Assembly: GCA_046497275.1 (NCBI GenBank)
Contig: JAWOFX010000065.1
Location: 1 to 6,524, forward strand
Source of the DNA: Promethearchaeia archaeon
GTDB taxonomy: Archaea > Asgardarchaeota > Lokiarchaeia > Sigyniarchaeales > SOKP01
Reading direction: 5' to 3'
DNA: 6,524 nt
Positions 355-6,524 of this stretch are shown here, one piece after another. Position 1 is the stretch's first letter. Every line of letters begins with the position of its first letter. The translations under genes and the position numbers were made by a program. The notes beneath the pieces are model-generated. The model did not search any database and was not told where the DNA came from. It worked only from the letters and a program-made list of their open reading frames with translations.

Positions 355-795
355 ATGGCAGATGAGTTTAGTAGTTTTCTTGCATCAGCGAAAAAGGAAC
401 CTATTGAAGAAAAAGTTAATCAATTCGGTGAGATCGTTGAGAAAATCATGAGTATTGTCTTGCGCATCCCAGATTTAGTTGATCAATCACTTGCAAATAT
501 CAACCAAAAGATCTCAAATTTAGAAACAAAGGTCTCCTCATTAGAGACACAAGTGAGAGGATCAGCACCCGCAGCAGCAACAGCTTCCCCAAGTTCAAGT
601 CCTGCTCAGAAGGTGCCTAGTGGCCCACCTGGAGGTCCGCCCGGAGGCCCACCAGGAGGCCCACCTGGGGGACCACCATCGGGCCCGCCCGGAGGTCCTG
701 GCGCAGCCCAACAGAGACCAGCTAGCCCAGTCTCACTTAGAGGCGCGATAATGGGGGAACTGAAAGAGCTCTTTGCAAAGAAAAACCAGAAATAA
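355..795 (+). CDS. 146-aa protein: N-terminal helix and coiled coil, Ser/Ala/Pro linker, (GPPG)n repeat, C-terminal WH2/C/FAB-like amphipathic helix; candidate actin regulator
   Basis: ATG 355 to TAA 795. Regular heptad at V42/L46/I49/I53/L56/V60/L63/V67; six GPP(G/S) units; C-terminus SLRGAIMGELKELFAKKNQK. The CDS is well supported; the function is inference. Confidence 0.9.
   Translation: MADEFSSFLASAKKEPIEEKVNQFGEIVEKIMSIVLRIPDLVDQSLANINQKISNLETKVSSLETQVRGSAPAAATASPSSSPAQKVPSGPPGGPPGGPPGGPPGGPPSGPPGGPGAAQQRPASPVSLRGAIMGELKELFAKKNQK
622..702 (+). repeat. Coding 12-bp tandem repeat (GPPG x4, GPPS, GPPG, partial GPG)
   Basis: Units: ggcccacctgga / ggtccgcccgga / ggcccaccagga / ggcccacctggg / ggaccaccatcg / ggcccgcccgga / ggtcctggc. 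By hand count 64 of 81 bases are G/C, in an otherwise AT-rich window. Confidence 0.95.
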
Positions 796-1001: not shown

Positions 1002-2744
1002 GTGAAAAGTTTTAGAATGCTCTTCGAAACGGATATAAATGTAAAAGCTTCTCATGATTTAGAGAGACAAATTTTGGAGGTTCTTTCATTAGCTCGAGTT
1101 ATTAATAATTATTATTATAAGAAAGGACAAATTCAAAATAAAATTAAACCATTATTAGTAAAAAAATTCAGAGAAGAACTGGAAATCATCGAAAAAAATC
1201 GAGATTGGTTATTTGGAATTCCCTCTGTTTTAGACAAAGTAAGTCAAGATTTCATTAGTAAGAATGATTCATTTCGCTTTCCAGACAGCATTATTCTTTT
1301 TGAAGCATGGATGAGCCTGGGTATGAGAAGTTTATATCCCCAAGTGGCATTACATTTTAAATTTCCAGGATTTTTAAAAGGAGAAAAAACACGTCATATT
1401 TTTCAATATATCTTTTCTACATCACGAGGATTAGCATTTCCAATCTATTTTCCACCAGAATTTTATGATTATAATCCTCCATTTTTGAAGTATTTAAATC
1501 CTTTTTTTAAATGGGTTTATAAAATTTGCCATTATTTAAATAAGATCATTTTTAAAGTAGAGAAAATGTTTAATTCAAAACGCCACCATCCAGGCGAATT
1601 CGAATCAGTTATCATTTCGAAATATAATGATAATGTCTATAAAGGCATAAATACCTTATTTCATGGATATTTTACGAATGAACCCAAAACATTAAGCCAT
1701 TTCGCATCATTAAATGAAGTATTAAGAAATGTTATTTTCTGCTATAGAATTGGAGATCATGCTGTTGAAGTAAAAATGGATAATAATTTTCCGACGATGG
1801 GGGTTCCGTTAATCTCTAATACTTTAATTAAAAAGAGATATGAAGTTGATTTCTATTCCTATATTAAACATTTGATGACTATAAATAATCTATTGACAAA
1901 AAAAATAGAATATTATAGGAAAAAACGAAAAAAATTAATTAAAGCCCTCAGTTTGATTGATCAAATCAAATTCTGGCTTCATATTTCCAAGAAACTCTCT
2001 CTTCCGGGACAACACTTACCACCTAAATATGCGGAAATAGAAAAATATCATAAACATAAACATTTAATTGAAAAATTAAGAACTTTATTATGGGTCACTC
2101 CACTATTTACCCATACCATACACAGTGCTTCTCGAGTAAGAGAATCATTCAAATTCTCGAGAAGCATCGAAGAAGTATCCGAATATGAGTATGATCTCGA
2201 ATCTTCTAAATCCATATTTTTCACATTTATATCATTATATGAAAAAGAGGAGGAATTTGAATTTATAGATGAAGATGTTGTTGCAGGGTTTGAAGATTTA
2301 CGAGATATGATGGCAAAAATGTGGCTATATTTTAAGGAGAGACACCTAAAGTATGCCCTTAGAAGCTTGAACGATATTGCTCGCCTTCCCATTGAGAGTG
2401 AAAATTATAAAATAAAGGTAGAAGAAAAAATAAAAAAATTAATTCCAATCATTGCTATTTATGAGATCTTTAATAGACCTCTCTCCGAATCTGTATATCC
2501 TGATGCAATTCCCCAAACTAAGAGATTTGGTGCTTATTTAGCCAAATTTCTCACTTCAAGATATAATATAGTTGGTTTAAACCTTATCAAATTCTTTAAT
2601 AAATTAGCATACAGAAATTGGGCTCATCTTATTAAACAAAAAAAGTTATCTTTTCAAGAATTCTTTACTTTCATCTTTAATTTAGATATATGGAAATATA
2701 TACCAGATAACATAAAACAGATTATTTTAGATGATTCCATATAA
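1002..2744 (+). CDS. Hypothetical protein, ~580 aa, Lys- and aromatic-rich, apparently mostly helical
   Basis: Long uninterrupted ORF in AT-rich DNA. GTG 1002 has a GAGGG SD-like motif at 991-995; an alternative ATG lies at 1017; TAA at 2742-2744. No catalytic or family motif recognised. Confidence 0.88.
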   Translation: MKSFRMLFETDINVKASHDLERQILEVLSLARVINNYYYKKGQIQNKIKPLLVKKFREELEIIEKNRDWLFGIPSVLDKVSQDFISKNDSFRFPDSIILFEAWMSLGMRSLYPQVALHFKFPGFLKGEKTRHIFQYIFSTSRGLAFPIYFPPEFYDYNPPFLKYLNPFFKWVYKICHYLNKIIFKVEKMFNSKRHHPGEFESVIISKYNDNVYKGINTLFHGYFTNEPKTLSHFASLNEVLRNVIFCYRIGDHAVEVKMDNNFPTMGVPLISNTLIKKRYEVDFYSYIKHLMTINNLLTKKIEYYRKKRKKLIKALSLIDQIKFWLHISKKLSLPGQHLPPKYAEIEKYHKHKHLIEKLRTLLWVTPLFTHTIHSASRVRESFKFSRSIEEVSEYEYDLESSKSIFFTFISLYEKEEEFEFIDEDVVAGFEDLRDMMAKMWLYFKERHLKYALRSLNDIARLPIESENYKIKVEEKIKKLIPIIAIYEIFNRPLSESVYPDAIPQTKRFGAYLAKFLTSRYNIVGLNLIKFFNKLAYRNWAHLIKQKKLSFQEFFTFIFNLDIWKYIPDNIKQIILDDSI

Positions 2745-2794: not shown

Positions 2795-3379
2795 TTAAAA
2801 TTCTAAGAAACCAGGATCTTCAAACACATCATCAATATCCCTCTCTTTTTTAATATCGCTCTCATCATGTTCGCTGAATAATGAATCATCATCTGTTTGA
2901 ATACCGTGCTCAAGTTCCTCGGTTTCTAAGTTAAGCAGCGCGTCTTTCTCTAATCGCTTGTATTTCTCTGCTCGTTGCTTCCATTCGTTTACTTCATCCA
3001 TGTCGATATCTTCCTCCTCGTCTAAAAGTTCAGCAGCTTTCACCTTACTTAGATCTGATAAAATTGAATATGCAAATGCCATTTCTCCCCATTCTCCCTT
3101 CTCCTTGAGTTTTTTTACTCGTTTTTCTAACCGTTGGAGTTCCTGATCCGCATAATATATATCGATAAAGCTTCCGAAAGCATCTACTGGTTCTGAAATC
3201 GAATTAATTAACACTTCTTTCTCTAAACCACAATGGCCGCATTTCACCGTAGCAAATCCCCCGCCTTTTTTAATATCTTTCACTTTTACTGCCTTCTCTC
3301 CGCAAGATGGGCACGTAAATATCTTAGGAAGCTTTTTAACTCTCCTATAAGTGGTCTGCTTTCTTTTTCTTCGTCCCAT
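2795..3379 (-). CDS. elf1: Transcription elongation factor Elf1 (ELOF1 homolog) with a long C-terminal extension
   Basis: Basic N-terminus MGRRKRK, then LPKIFTCPSC...VKCGHC (C23/C26/C47/C50 zinc ribbon) and EPVDAFGSFID, matching the Elf1 pattern (F-x-C-P-x-C ... C-x-x-C ... EPVD-x-Y/F-x-x-W/F-ID). Residues 78-194 are additional. Confidence 0.93.
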   Translation of the reverse strand: MGRRKRKQTTYRRVKKLPKIFTCPSCGEKAVKVKDIKKGGGFATVKCGHCGLEKEVLINSISEPVDAFGSFIDIYYADQELQRLEKRVKKLKEKGEWGEMAFAYSILSDLSKVKAAELLDEEEDIDMDEVNEWKQRAEKYKRLEKDALLNLETEELEHGIQTDDDSLFSEHDESDIKKERDIDDVFEDPGFLEF

Positions 3380-3587: not shown

Positions 3588-4694
3588 GTGGATAATAGGA
3601 TGGAACATAAAAGCTTATCATTGGAGTATGATAGAGATTTAATCAATCGAATTCTCGATGATGAAAATATGCGATATATAGTACTTTTCTTATATATTAT
3701 ACGAAACGATTTATTTCGAGATTTGAAAGATGAAACCCTGATTGAATCATATAATCGTGTGTTAATTTTAGACGAAATCTATAAAGCTAATTTGTTGACT
3801 TTTTGGGATGATGAGTTTTTAGATATAGCTATCGATCTGGGATTAATTAAAAATATTAGGACAAAAAGGGAATTTGAACAAAAAGATCAGGATTTTATTA
3901 TTAAACTCGGAGAAGAAACAATCACCATCGAAGGAGATACTGTAAGTGTGCCAGCAGATACACTCTATATGATGATAACAAAAAAATATAAATCAATAAA
4001 CAGACGAGATTTCAATTTAGCGTTAACCAGGCTAAAAAGTGTTCGATGCGAAGTTTCGGGTGTAATTCATTCGTTCATATTTCAGATAAGTGAAGAAGAT
4101 TATGCTATCTCTGATGATTTATATTATATTTTAGATCAATTTGGAAATGTGTACCAAACAATTAAAATCGAACATACTGTTGAGGGGTTTTCCGAAAGAT
4201 TTAATCAAATATATGGAAAGCTATTAGAATTAATAGAGATATTTGATCCTGTTCTTAATAATAAAAAACCTATGAGAAAAACTAACGAAGCAATTGAACA
4301 AAATAAGGATATTATTGAATTTTTAAAAGAAGAAAGAATTGGTTTATCAGATAAATTTAATATGAGTAAAATTGATAAAAATGAAAGTATGTTTAAGGAT
4401 TGGTACTCACGCTTAACTCAATTATTAAATTTTCGCTATAACATGCAAAATATAGATAAAGAAATTAAAAACATAAAGAGTTATTATTCTGGGAAAGAGA
4501 AAAAATATAATTATTTAGAGTTTATTGAAATGGTTTCGTTTAATGAAGATGAAATTGTTGATCGAATTAGAGAGGATTTAATCTCTCTAAGAAAAAAGAT
4601 AATTGAAATTAATGATGTAATATCAAAACTATCAAAAAAGCAAATTAAATTATTAAATTTAGATTTTGAAAGATTTTTAATTGAACAAAGTTAA
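3588..4694 (+). CDS. Hypothetical protein (364-368 aa), probable winged-helix region(s) followed by a helical or coiled-coil C-terminal half
   Basis: GTG 3588 or ATG 3600 to TAA 4692-4694. SVPADTLYMMITKKYKSINRRDFNLALTRLKS...FIFQISEEDYAISDDLYYILDQ reads as wHTH helices 2 and 3, wing and following helix. The C-terminal ~150 aa have long amphipathic helices. Fold call made by eye. Confidence 0.85.
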   Translation: MDNRMEHKSLSLEYDRDLINRILDDENMRYIVLFLYIIRNDLFRDLKDETLIESYNRVLILDEIYKANLLTFWDDEFLDIAIDLGLIKNIRTKREFEQKDQDFIIKLGEETITIEGDTVSVPADTLYMMITKKYKSINRRDFNLALTRLKSVRCEVSGVIHSFIFQISEEDYAISDDLYYILDQFGNVYQTIKIEHTVEGFSERFNQIYGKLLELIEIFDPVLNNKKPMRKTNEAIEQNKDIIEFLKEERIGLSDKFNMSKIDKNESMFKDWYSRLTQLLNFRYNMQNIDKEIKNIKSYYSGKEKKYNYLEFIEMVSFNEDEIVDRIREDLISLRKKIIEINDVISKLSKKQIKLLNLDFERFLIEQS

Positions 4695-4707
4695 AGTGAA
4701 TATATCA

Positions 4708-5688
4708 ATGAAATGTCCCGCTTGCAATATTGAGATGGAGCCTCTAGTAGATGGAATATTTCAATGCCCAAAGTGTAGGAAAATAATAAAAGCAAAAGGC
4801 GAAGAAGAAAAAAAAGAAGAAAAGAAGATTAGTGAGGGAGACATTCAGGATGGAGAATATTTTCATCAACATGCTAGTATAAATAAAAAATATGAATTAT
4901 GCGAATCGGGTATAACCGTACACAAAACAGACAACAGATGGATTGCGGTTTTAATATGTCATAATGCATATTTAGAGGCTGAAAGATATGTGCGAATATC
5001 GTGGTGGAAAAAATCTTTTTATAGACATGGTGGGATGATGAAAATATATGAAGAAGATGTTATGAAAAATCTTATCAAAGCATTGAAAAAGATAGATGAA
5101 AATTTTGATGAGTTTTGGACATTTAAAGGAAAATTCAGAGAAAATAAACTATTAACAGAAGAGGATAAATTAAGAGAGAAGAAATTAGATCTGATGAAGT
5201 TTAGGATTATTGAAAATCGTACATGTCCAAGATGTGGAAAAAAAATGGATAAAGAAAAAGCTCATTATGAATGTCCTCATTGTGGTGAAATTGTAATATT
5301 AGAGGGTTATAATCAACCAATCTTCAATATTTCTCCTTCGGATCTAAAATTGAATTTTCAAGCTAATTTTCCAATTAATTTTTATTTACCTGTAAGTGGG
5401 ATCACAATTAAATGGTTAATGGGCGAATGGAAAGCGCTAGTAATAATATATTCGAAAGATAATCCCAATAAAAAATGGTTAAGATTTTACTGGTGGGTGA
5501 GAGATTTAGAAAATTTAGTAAAATATGGTCATCGAGAGATCGGAGAGAGCTCCAAATTAGGCTGGAAAGCAAAAAAAGGAGCTGGAAGTACCAATTTGTA
5601 CAATAAAGATTCAATAAAACCTTTAATAAAGGCTCTAGAAAAAATATCAAAAGAAATGAATTGGAATCTAGAAGATGAGAGAGAGTAA
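4708..5688 (+). CDS. Internally duplicated protein, 2 x [C4 zinc ribbon + PC4/PUR-like beta-sheet-helix domain]; putative ssDNA/RNA-binding protein
   Basis: ATG 4708 is preferred over TTG 4681 because it starts directly at MKCPAC and avoids a 14-nt overlap. Zn ribbons are CPAC..CPKC and CPRC..CPHC. Both halves share Y-x(3-4)-SGIT[VI]-x6-W-x-A-h-h-I...[YW][VL]R[IF]xWW...LIKAL[KE]KI. Confidence 0.9.
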   Translation: MKCPACNIEMEPLVDGIFQCPKCRKIIKAKGEEEKKEEKKISEGDIQDGEYFHQHASINKKYELCESGITVHKTDNRWIAVLICHNAYLEAERYVRISWWKKSFYRHGGMMKIYEEDVMKNLIKALKKIDENFDEFWTFKGKFRENKLLTEEDKLREKKLDLMKFRIIENRTCPRCGKKMDKEKAHYECPHCGEIVILEGYNQPIFNISPSDLKLNFQANFPINFYLPVSGITIKWLMGEWKALVIIYSKDNPNKKWLRFYWWVRDLENLVKYGHREIGESSKLGWKAKKGAGSTNLYNKDSIKPLIKALEKISKEMNWNLEDERE

Positions 5689-5693
5689 AAAAT

Positions 5694-6524
5694 ATGTCAG
5701 AAAAACAAGATCCAACATGGACTGAGTTATTAAATTCATTCACAGAGGGAGTAGATAACGCTATAGCACATTTAGAAGAACGAGATATAGAAAGAATTCC
5801 TGGTGCAAGAGAGGCGCTTTTAAGACGATTAAATGATATGAAAACCCACTTCCCGAAAAATAATGGAGAAATATTTAAAAAAGCAATAAATGATAAAATT
5901 CAAGAAGCATTTTTTCCTAATACTAGAGATTTTGCTGAAGCATTTGCCCAAATTCTGAAATCACGAACTCATGAACAAGATTTTATAATTAATGAATTAA
6001 TTAATGGATTTGTAACTTCTCGCGCAAAAGCAATTGCCTCAGGTACACAAGTTCCTGTGATAGATCGATTAGTAGAGGCTTTTAGTAGTAGAAATGATTT
6101 TCATATTGTAGATCATCAATTTTTTGCATTATTTGGTGATCCAAATAAACCTAGAAAATATGTTAAAAAACAATTAGAAGAATTAATAAATCTATTTGGG
6201 TTAATTTCAAAAGAACTTGTAGTTGAGAAAGATGTAAGAAAAAGTGAAAGAAAAGTTTATACATTTTATACTTTTCCCGATGACATATTGGCAATTTTAG
6301 AGGAGAAGTATATTATTATTGATGAAGAATTAGGATATGCATACGTATCCGAAGCTTTTGACAGAAATGTATTTATTTGTATGTTTTTAGCTAATGTTGC
6401 GATAAATTGGGATAATTTAAAGAAAATTGGTGGAGAATATACTATAAATGGTATTTGTGCGATTTTTGCTCTCATCTTATTATTAAGTTTTATGCCGAAA
6501 GTATCTGTAAGCGAAGATAATCCA
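5694..6524 (+). CDS. Hypothetical protein, 3'-truncated (277 aa visible), with an N-terminal helical region and a probable winged-helix segment
   Basis: ATG 5694 lies 5 nt after the upstream stop and the frame stays open to the window end (MSEKQDPTWTELLNSFTEGV...SFMPKVSVSEDNP). It is missing from the ORF track, presumably because no stop lies in the window. Confidence 0.88.
   Translation, partial: MSEKQDPTWTELLNSFTEGVDNAIAHLEERDIERIPGAREALLRRLNDMKTHFPKNNGEIFKKAINDKIQEAFFPNTRDFAEAFAQILKSRTHEQDFIINELINGFVTSRAKAIASGTQVPVIDRLVEAFSSRNDFHIVDHQFFALFGDPNKPRKYVKKQLEELINLFGLISKELVVEKDVRKSERKVYTFYTFPDDILAILEEKYIIIDEELGYAYVSEAFDRNVFICMFLANVAINWDNLKKIGGEYTINGICAIFALILLLSFMPKVSVSEDNP

Follow-up and report, generated by a model that had tools for sequence, protein, structure and literature searches.

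The 146-residue protein encoded at positions 355–795 of the window (the whole 6,524-nucleotide stretch of DNA analysed here) is a genuine, conserved small protein of Asgard archaea. We compared the profile of its family with that of the C-terminal tails of an Arf/RagA-like GTPase, and the match indicates that the protein is a free-standing copy of the GTPase tail in which the spacer is longer and rich in proline. The N-terminal part of the same module is also built into Ras-like GTPases and gelsolin-domain proteins. We tentatively favour the reading that the protein is an adaptor that forms oligomers and whose flexible arms each carry a docking helix at the end, drawn from an Asgard module family common to small GTPases and gelsolin proteins.

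The window comprises the entire 6.5-kb contig C131 of a genome of 3.85 Mb with a GC content of approximately 28% and a completeness of 98.9%. The features of the window referred to below are as follows, where f1 is the window's own family and f3 is another Loki family.

3–200, + strand: 3′ end of the upstream coiled-coil gene, whose product is approximately 210 residues long in relatives and matches no Pfam family; it adjoins the 146-residue gene throughout f1 and in one f3 genome.
355–795, + strand: the whole gene, with an ATG start and 146 codons plus a stop; a conserved family.
355–390, + strand: N-terminal acidic/aromatic motif M-A-D/E-E-F-x-x-F, of which A2, E4, F5, and F8 are invariant in the family alignment.
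394–561, + strand: conserved helix K-x-P-x-E-E-K-x-N-x-F-G ... I-P-D-L-V-D-Q-S-L leading into a heptad coiled coil, residues 14–69 (AlphaFold2, hhalign, and profile matches).
562–615, + strand: Ser/Ala/Pro linker, residues 70–87, predicted to be disordered (pLDDT below 50); its columns are variable among orthologues.
616–699, + strand: (PPGG)n tract, residues 88–115, encoded by a 12-nucleotide tandem repeat and variable in length and composition.
715–792, + strand: R-P-A-S-P-V-S lead-in and basic amphipathic end helix L-R-G-A-I-M-G-E-L-K-E-L-F-A-K-K, residues 121–146; near-invariant.
2795–3379, − strand: Elf1-like zinc-ribbon gene whose product has a long acidic extension at the C-terminus, the sole neighbour kept in both f1 and f3.

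The structure predicted by AlphaFold2 from an alignment of 33 sequences contained helices at residues 2–12, 17–69 (a long helix), and 125–145, with disorder at residues 70–124. The pLDDT was above 90 for residues 21–60 and approximately 81 for the terminal helix (residues 125–145). Inspection of the sequence revealed a 4-3 heptad spacing of the hydrophobic residues at positions 42, 46, 49, 53, 56, 60, 63, and 67. The DNA of the Gly/Pro tract is a 12-nucleotide tandem repeat of 4.8 copies at positions 622–678 (TRF call, 622–695), and the tract sits in a GC-rich islet (42% vs. approximately 27%). These results indicate that the modules listed in the preliminary description, namely a coiled coil, a disordered Ser/Ala/Pro linker, a Gly/Pro repeat, and a terminal basic helix, are all present in the 146-residue ORF. 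Sub-threshold Pfam matches to Muted and BLOC1_2 (BLOC-1 subunits) and to CLZ were treated as coiled-coil noise, and a match to DUF7201 (PF23831; 20.3 bits, E 4.8e-4) was rejected, as it covers the coiled coil only and lies below the curated cut-off of 27 bits.

The searches yielded more than 190 homologues of approximately 145 residues each (E 1e-48 to 1e-37), all without an assigned name and with sources labelled Promethearchaeota, Lokiarchaeota, or Thorarchaeota. The family was confined to Asgard archaea in these searches, and an atlas look-up matched Asgard clusters only. The family profile matched 243 of the 400 genomes of the phylum; it matched 123 of 134 genomes in f1 and 13 of 14 in the sister family, which includes closed genomes of 6.0 and 4.4 Mb, and no match was obtained in several Asgard families (0 of 31, 0 of 22, and 0 of 12 genomes). 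Pieces of the gene were also found at 99% identity or higher in salt-lake metatranscriptome libraries from three studies, in which DNA carry-over is possible.

Among Loki-type sequences, residues 1–46 and the final 25 residues are near-invariant; variation in length and sequence is seen in the Pro/Gly tract, in the Ser/Ala/Pro linker, and on the surface of the coiled coil. Orthologues from other classes lack the PPGG repeat and show the same order of an acidic/aromatic start (D-D-D-F-I-x-E-E-F-E-W in the Thor version), a helix, a coiled coil, a P/A/S/G-rich spacer, and the end helix. The spacer ranges from approximately 25 to more than 60 residues and also differs in composition. The proline tract takes the form of (PPGG)n in the window, is Ser/Ala-rich in Thor, and is absent from the GTPase tails, and the orthologue in an L. 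ossiferum-like genome (G138) carries three A-P-P-P-P-P-G-R runs. This variation in length and composition fits the role of a flexible spacer. The E-L-K of the end helix is invariant in Loki, Thor, and the other classes and in all contexts, so the C-terminal helix is conserved among homologues. The modules, including the terminal helix, are all conserved among Asgard homologues, but the proline tract is not conserved in kind.

As had been supposed from the sequence, the host is an Asgard archaeon carrying Lokiactin, which is 96–100% identical within the window's family. Lokiactin was present in 88 of the 90 high-quality genomes of the phylum, and the homologues are thus not concentrated in lineages lacking actin. 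Actin is also present in the Asgard families f13, f16, and f18, in which the profile search found no member of the 146-residue family. The distribution does not discriminate between the readings considered below, because actin is equally present in families without the protein. Directly 3′ of the second Lokiactin paralogue of the window's genome lies a 410-residue gene (L003:2874–4106, + strand; contig C84 of G000), the C-terminal half of whose product resembles a TrmB-type winged helix by eye.

We searched the window's own genome (G000) in six frames using one profile for the N-terminal part and another for the end helix. One other carrier was found, a 414-residue ORF on contig C47 (G000:C47:27799–29040, − strand; locus L042:2001–3242) whose C-terminus was matched by both profiles in the right order and which terminates in the end helix, giving only two modules in this genome. 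Pfam identified this ORF as a Gtr1_RagA/Arf-like GTPase, and it is conserved at full length in relatives. The profile of 30 orthologous GTPase tails aligned with the family profile over residues 17–144 with an hhalign probability of 95.9% (E 6.2e-9). The 146-residue protein conforms to the pattern of the tail module, P-x-L-x-x-K-(L/V)-x-x-(F/L)-G, followed by the coiled coil and a terminal (V/I)-(L/M)-x-E-L-K-x-L-F-x-K-(K/R). The helix, the coiled coil, the end helix, the order of the parts, and the E-L-K-x-L-F-x-K-K ending are thus shared with the GTPase tail. The 146-residue protein differs from the tail in standing alone, in having an additional acidic/aromatic motif at its N-terminus, and in the long (PPGG)n spacer that replaces the short conserved linker. 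The literature searched on actin regulators, profilins, and Arf GTPases of Asgard archaea contained no description of the module. In regard to the C47 GTPase, the 414-codon frame contains no ATG, GTG, or TTG before the P-loop, and its first ATG is at codon 159, which could reflect an unusual start codon or a sequencing problem.

With a combined profile of the N-terminal part, we also searched 1.84 billion representative sequences irrespective of their length. The carriers were seven Arf/RagA-like GTPases, two Ras-like GTPases, a zinc-ribbon protein (P0193), an LRR protein (P0222), and gelsolin-domain proteins. P0193 and P0222 possess both the N-terminal module and the end helix, which is internal in P0222. 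The gelsolin fusions bear the N-terminal part only, without the end helix; the helix and coiled coil corresponding to residues 14–69 constitute the module common to the GTPase tails and the gelsolin fusions. The gelsolin domain of P0141 matched the Lokiarchaeota 2DGel (PDB 7WHG; E 9e-11) and also human gelsolin, and P0167 matched the Thor ProGel (PDB 7C2F; E 4.5e-4). P0240, a metagenomic protein of 560 residues (locus L122:2630–4562), consists of a Ras-like GTPase followed by two gelsolin domains that flank the helix/coiled-coil module, and it ends in a PYPY/zinc-finger segment. A GTPase switch and actin-binding domains are joined here on a single chain; a frame-split version is present on an independent contig. 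Some Asgard gelsolins, the group that includes 2DGel and ProGel (PMC9433394, PMC7444086), thus contain the N-terminal helix/coiled coil (P0141, P0167, and P0240), whereas the 146-residue protein has no gelsolin domain.

The proposed link to the Asgard actin system stands in part, since the N-terminal module is fused elsewhere to gelsolin domains and small GTPases, as judged from the profile search and the PDB matches. The gelsolin fusions are the only verified tie of the module to the actin system, and an indirect one. The module was not found in the gelsolin proteins of the window's genome, and one search with the last 42 residues found no longer proteins carrying them, which is weak evidence. 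A gelsolin-domain protein of this genome (G000:C180:11182–12030, + strand) is 53% identical to the gelsolin part of P0141 and is encoded approximately 4 kb from an actin-family gene (C180:16325–17407).

In the adaptor reading that we favour, the 146-residue protein would be a free-standing copy of an Asgard-specific tail module composed of a helix leading into a coiled coil, then a flexible spacer, and finally a basic amphipathic end helix. The coiled coil is predicted to oligomerise the protein, and it may also pair with the Arf/RagA-like GTPases, Ras-like GTPases, and gelsolin-domain proteins that share the helix. The Pro/Gly-rich arms would serve as flexible spacers of adjustable length, and the helix at the end of each arm may serve as a peptide to which one conserved partner, with F-actin as one candidate, would dock. 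The whole would act as a multivalent adaptor in a network of small GTPases and gelsolins, concerned with the cytoskeleton or trafficking. The invariance of E-L-K across classes and contexts fits a specific protein contact of the end helix. Furthermore, the protein probably belongs to the Asgard cytoskeleton or trafficking control network, because its parts are built into small GTPases and actin-binding gelsolin proteins. Against the adaptor reading, the gelsolin fusions carry the N-terminal part only, the module occurs only twice in this genome, the gene neighbourhood, which is not the same in Loki and Thor, offers no clue to function, and the chemistry of the helix is equally compatible with lipid binding. 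A widespread, expressed, and strongly conserved protein of this kind is a candidate for a missing adaptor that would link GTPase signalling with membranes and the cytoskeleton; should its partner have nothing to do with actin, the module would nevertheless represent a new means of targeting GTPases in Asgard archaea.

The compatibility with lipid binding leads to a second reading, which we consider unlikely, in which the amphipathic end helix would anchor the coiled-coil protein and the tail-bearing GTPases to the membrane via a flexible linker and replace the lipid anchors of eukaryotic small GTPases. Amphipathic helices target MinD and FtsA to the membrane, and eukaryotic Ras and Rab carry their membrane anchors at the C-terminus. 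The end helix of the GTPase tails occupies this same site, and in the 146-residue protein this basic amphipathic helix lies at the terminus, behind a flexible linker. It has a net charge of +2 to +4, a HeliQuest-type discriminant of 0.95–1.7, and a hydrophobic moment of 0.29–0.39. The positive charge and the moment lie in a range shared with bacterial membrane-targeting helices, although the moment is only of middling size. However, lipid-binding helices normally keep amphipathicity only and not specific residues, and the residue-level invariance observed here, which includes an acidic residue (E-L-K) and extends to the preceding R-P-A-S-P-V-S, is unusual for such helices. Moreover, the helix is internal in the LRR protein P0222 and in a protein of 697 residues (L128:691–2784, + strand; G143:C1 at approximately 1.210 Mb), in which the end helix (T-L-R-G-G-M-T-E-E-L-K-T-L-F-S-K) comes after an internal proline-rich tract and the C-terminus bears a transmembrane segment. 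The latter protein, having a transmembrane anchor of its own, does not require the helix to reach the membrane. The residue invariance and these two contexts point rather to a protein contact. A role of the end helix as an MIT-interacting motif was also considered and rejected, as the helix profile matches no ESCRT-III gene in this genome.

The preliminary description had tentatively placed the protein in a proto-WAVE/WASH/Ena-VASP class, that is, an oligomer whose proline tract would recruit profilin-actin and whose end helix would bind G- or F-actin, so as to nucleate, elongate, or bundle Lokiactin. We regard this reading as slightly more doubtful than membrane anchoring. The parts list of a coiled coil, a Pro-rich tract, and a basic helix fits it, the genome encodes Lokiactin, which like the end helix is extremely conserved, and the fusions of the N-terminal module to gelsolin domains are in its favour, as are the three A-P-P-P-P-P-G-R runs of the L. 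ossiferum orthologue. The niche is also free, as gelsolins and profilins are the only Asgard actin regulators in the literature (2025 preprint). The absence of the family from the actin-bearing f13, f16, and f18 counts against it, as do most of the comparisons that follow.

The WH2 motif of WASP and WAVE proteins is an amphipathic helix followed, at a fixed spacing, by L-K-K-T/V. The 146-residue protein resembles this arrangement in that an amphipathic helix comes after a proline-rich region, and its L-K-Q-L, at the position of L-K-K-T/V, is faintly like L-K-K-V. However, inspection of the sequence showed that the I-to-G and G-to-L distances are each one residue shorter than in WASP/WAVE and that the distance from the helix to the L-K motif is two residues shorter, at two places. 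The helix predicted by AlphaFold2 continues through L-K-Q-L. WH2 (PF02205) was not matched by the whole protein at a Pfam E ≤ 1 or by residues 105–146 at E ≤ 10. In regard to WAVE/SCAR and WASH, Pfam detected no WHD/SHD, WAHD, C, or A regions, and the C-terminus has no acidic tryptophan-bearing segment.

Ena/VASP proteins consist of an EVH1 domain, a proline-rich region, and an EVH2 region with GAB, FAB, and a tetramerising coiled coil (PMC10340426). The 146-residue protein shares with them a predicted coiled coil, a proline-rich region, and a short basic helix. In contrast, it is only 146 residues long and gives no Pfam match to EVH1 (WH1) or VASP_tetra, and its coiled coil is N-terminal and not C-terminal. 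Searches of PDB sequences with the family profile and the C-terminal profiles gave generic trimeric coiled coils and chance matches, and no VASP or WH2 chain. The GAB of human VASP (WH2-like, K-L-R-K) did not score above shuffled sequences with any of the helix profiles (−4.5 to 0.8 bits). Neither a WH2-type actin-binding helix nor membership of the WAVE/WASH/Ena-VASP class is therefore borne out.

The FAB of human VASP (residues 259–278) binds F-actin, and the GAB is a different peptide (PMC10340426). The FAB scored −1.5 bits against the Loki-type helix profile of the window, so that the Loki helix is unlike the FAB. We defined a Thor set by taxonomy (70 Thorarchaeota orthologues with 38 distinct helices and the consensus G-G-x-S-M-M-G-E-L-K-x-L-L-A-A-R-R-R-K-A), against whose profile the FAB scored 5.2–6.4 bits. 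A total of 0.3–1.3% of composition-preserving shuffles scored as well, and the best unrelated match among this genome's own ORFs reached 6.9 bits, which places the Thor score at the noise level. A score of 13.8 bits obtained from six hand-picked distant orthologues was discarded, since it fell to 5–6 bits with the 70-sequence set. The resemblance of the Thor ending G-G-x-x-M-M-G-E-L-K-x-L-L-A-A-R-R-R-K-A to the FAB speaks for an actin-binding factor, and it may be taken as a statistically weak lead for the Thor helix, no more.

The claim of a profilin-binding proline-rich region is likewise unsupported, as the tract is not conserved in kind and is missing from the homologous GTPase tails. As cited in PMC8410842, Loki profilins reportedly do not bind polyproline, and Heimdall and Thor profilins bind it weakly. 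A conserved profilin-recruiting role is unlikely, and a flexible spacer fits better, because the tract varies or is absent and because of these Loki profilin data.

Co-immunoprecipitation of Lokiactin in L. ossiferum has been reported (2025 preprint). The locus tags of this organism follow the coordinates of G138 (actin 03343 at 3.925 Mb and 2DGel2 02589 at 3.040 Mb), and the Elf1-like gene just upstream of the orthologue encodes a protein with a monoisotopic mass of 24.01 kDa, the mass given for GNAMCCOK_02218. From this calibration and the mass of the neighbour, we infer that the orthologue (16.13 kDa) is GNAMCCOK_02219. The protein bearing this tag was detected in 16 of 16 proteomes with a mean log2 of 18.5, yet it was absent among the co-immunoprecipitation entries listed, which span log2 ratios from +10 to −1.06; 841 further entries exist. 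If the mapping is right, the protein is made and did not co-purify with Lokiactin under those conditions, which is weak evidence against stable binding. GNAMCCOK_02218, the counterpart of the Elf1-like protein by mass and position, was modestly enriched (log2 1.36, adjusted p 0.034). An Arf enriched in the same experiment was considered as a carrier of the module and rejected, as it is without the module and the profile matches only the orthologue in G138.

An extension of the actin reading, which we judge improbable, is that the end helix would be an archaeal forerunner of the Ena/VASP FAB, the free protein an oligomeric Lokiactin filament binder or elongation factor, and the helix a means of recruiting the tail-bearing GTPases to actin. 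If so, the Ena/VASP logic of coiled coil, proline arm, and FAB, coupled to GTPases, would predate eukaryotes. Least probable of all is a self-contained switch, in which the end helix would fold onto its own coiled coil (as autoinhibition or a bundle) and the free form would compete with or regulate the GTPase tails: the N-terminal module and the end helix do co-occur in the same order in four contexts (the free protein, the GTPase tails, P0193, and P0222), but AlphaFold2 showed no confident packing of the two (the protein reached a pTM of 0.29, and the GTPase tail with its short linker 0.39), the helix is missing from the gelsolin fusions that carry the N-terminal module, and the long proline-rich spacers suggest reach and not fold-back.

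The gene neighbourhoods of the Loki and Thor orthologues have nothing in common. In the window's family, the array runs from CutA1, a nucleotidyltransferase, two radical-SAM genes, a GNAT gene, and a Pelota-like gene through the coiled-coil gene, the 146-residue gene, and a gene without known function to the Elf1-like gene on the other strand, further genes without known function, and an AAA ATPase. The Thor array (L135:467–6389 and 70 other Thor loci) has phosphoglucomutase on one side and a PIG-L deacetylase, a GT4 glycosyltransferase, and a BshC-like gene on the other, and looks like a bacillithiol-type thiol pathway. No gene for actin, profilin, gelsolin, or another cytoskeletal protein was found near the 146-residue gene in either the Loki or the Thor neighbourhoods, and synteny with actin-system genes is thus lacking in both. 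The extension of the Elf1-type zinc ribbon comprises approximately 120 residues and is acidic and coiled. The remaining + strand regions of the window (1002–2744 and 3588–6524) hold ORFs of 580, 368, and at least 277 residues without a Pfam family and an ORF of 335 residues with zinc-ribbon matches only. The block at 3588–6524 is syntenic across the family and continues in relatives with a 438-residue gene of no known type and the AAA ATPase.
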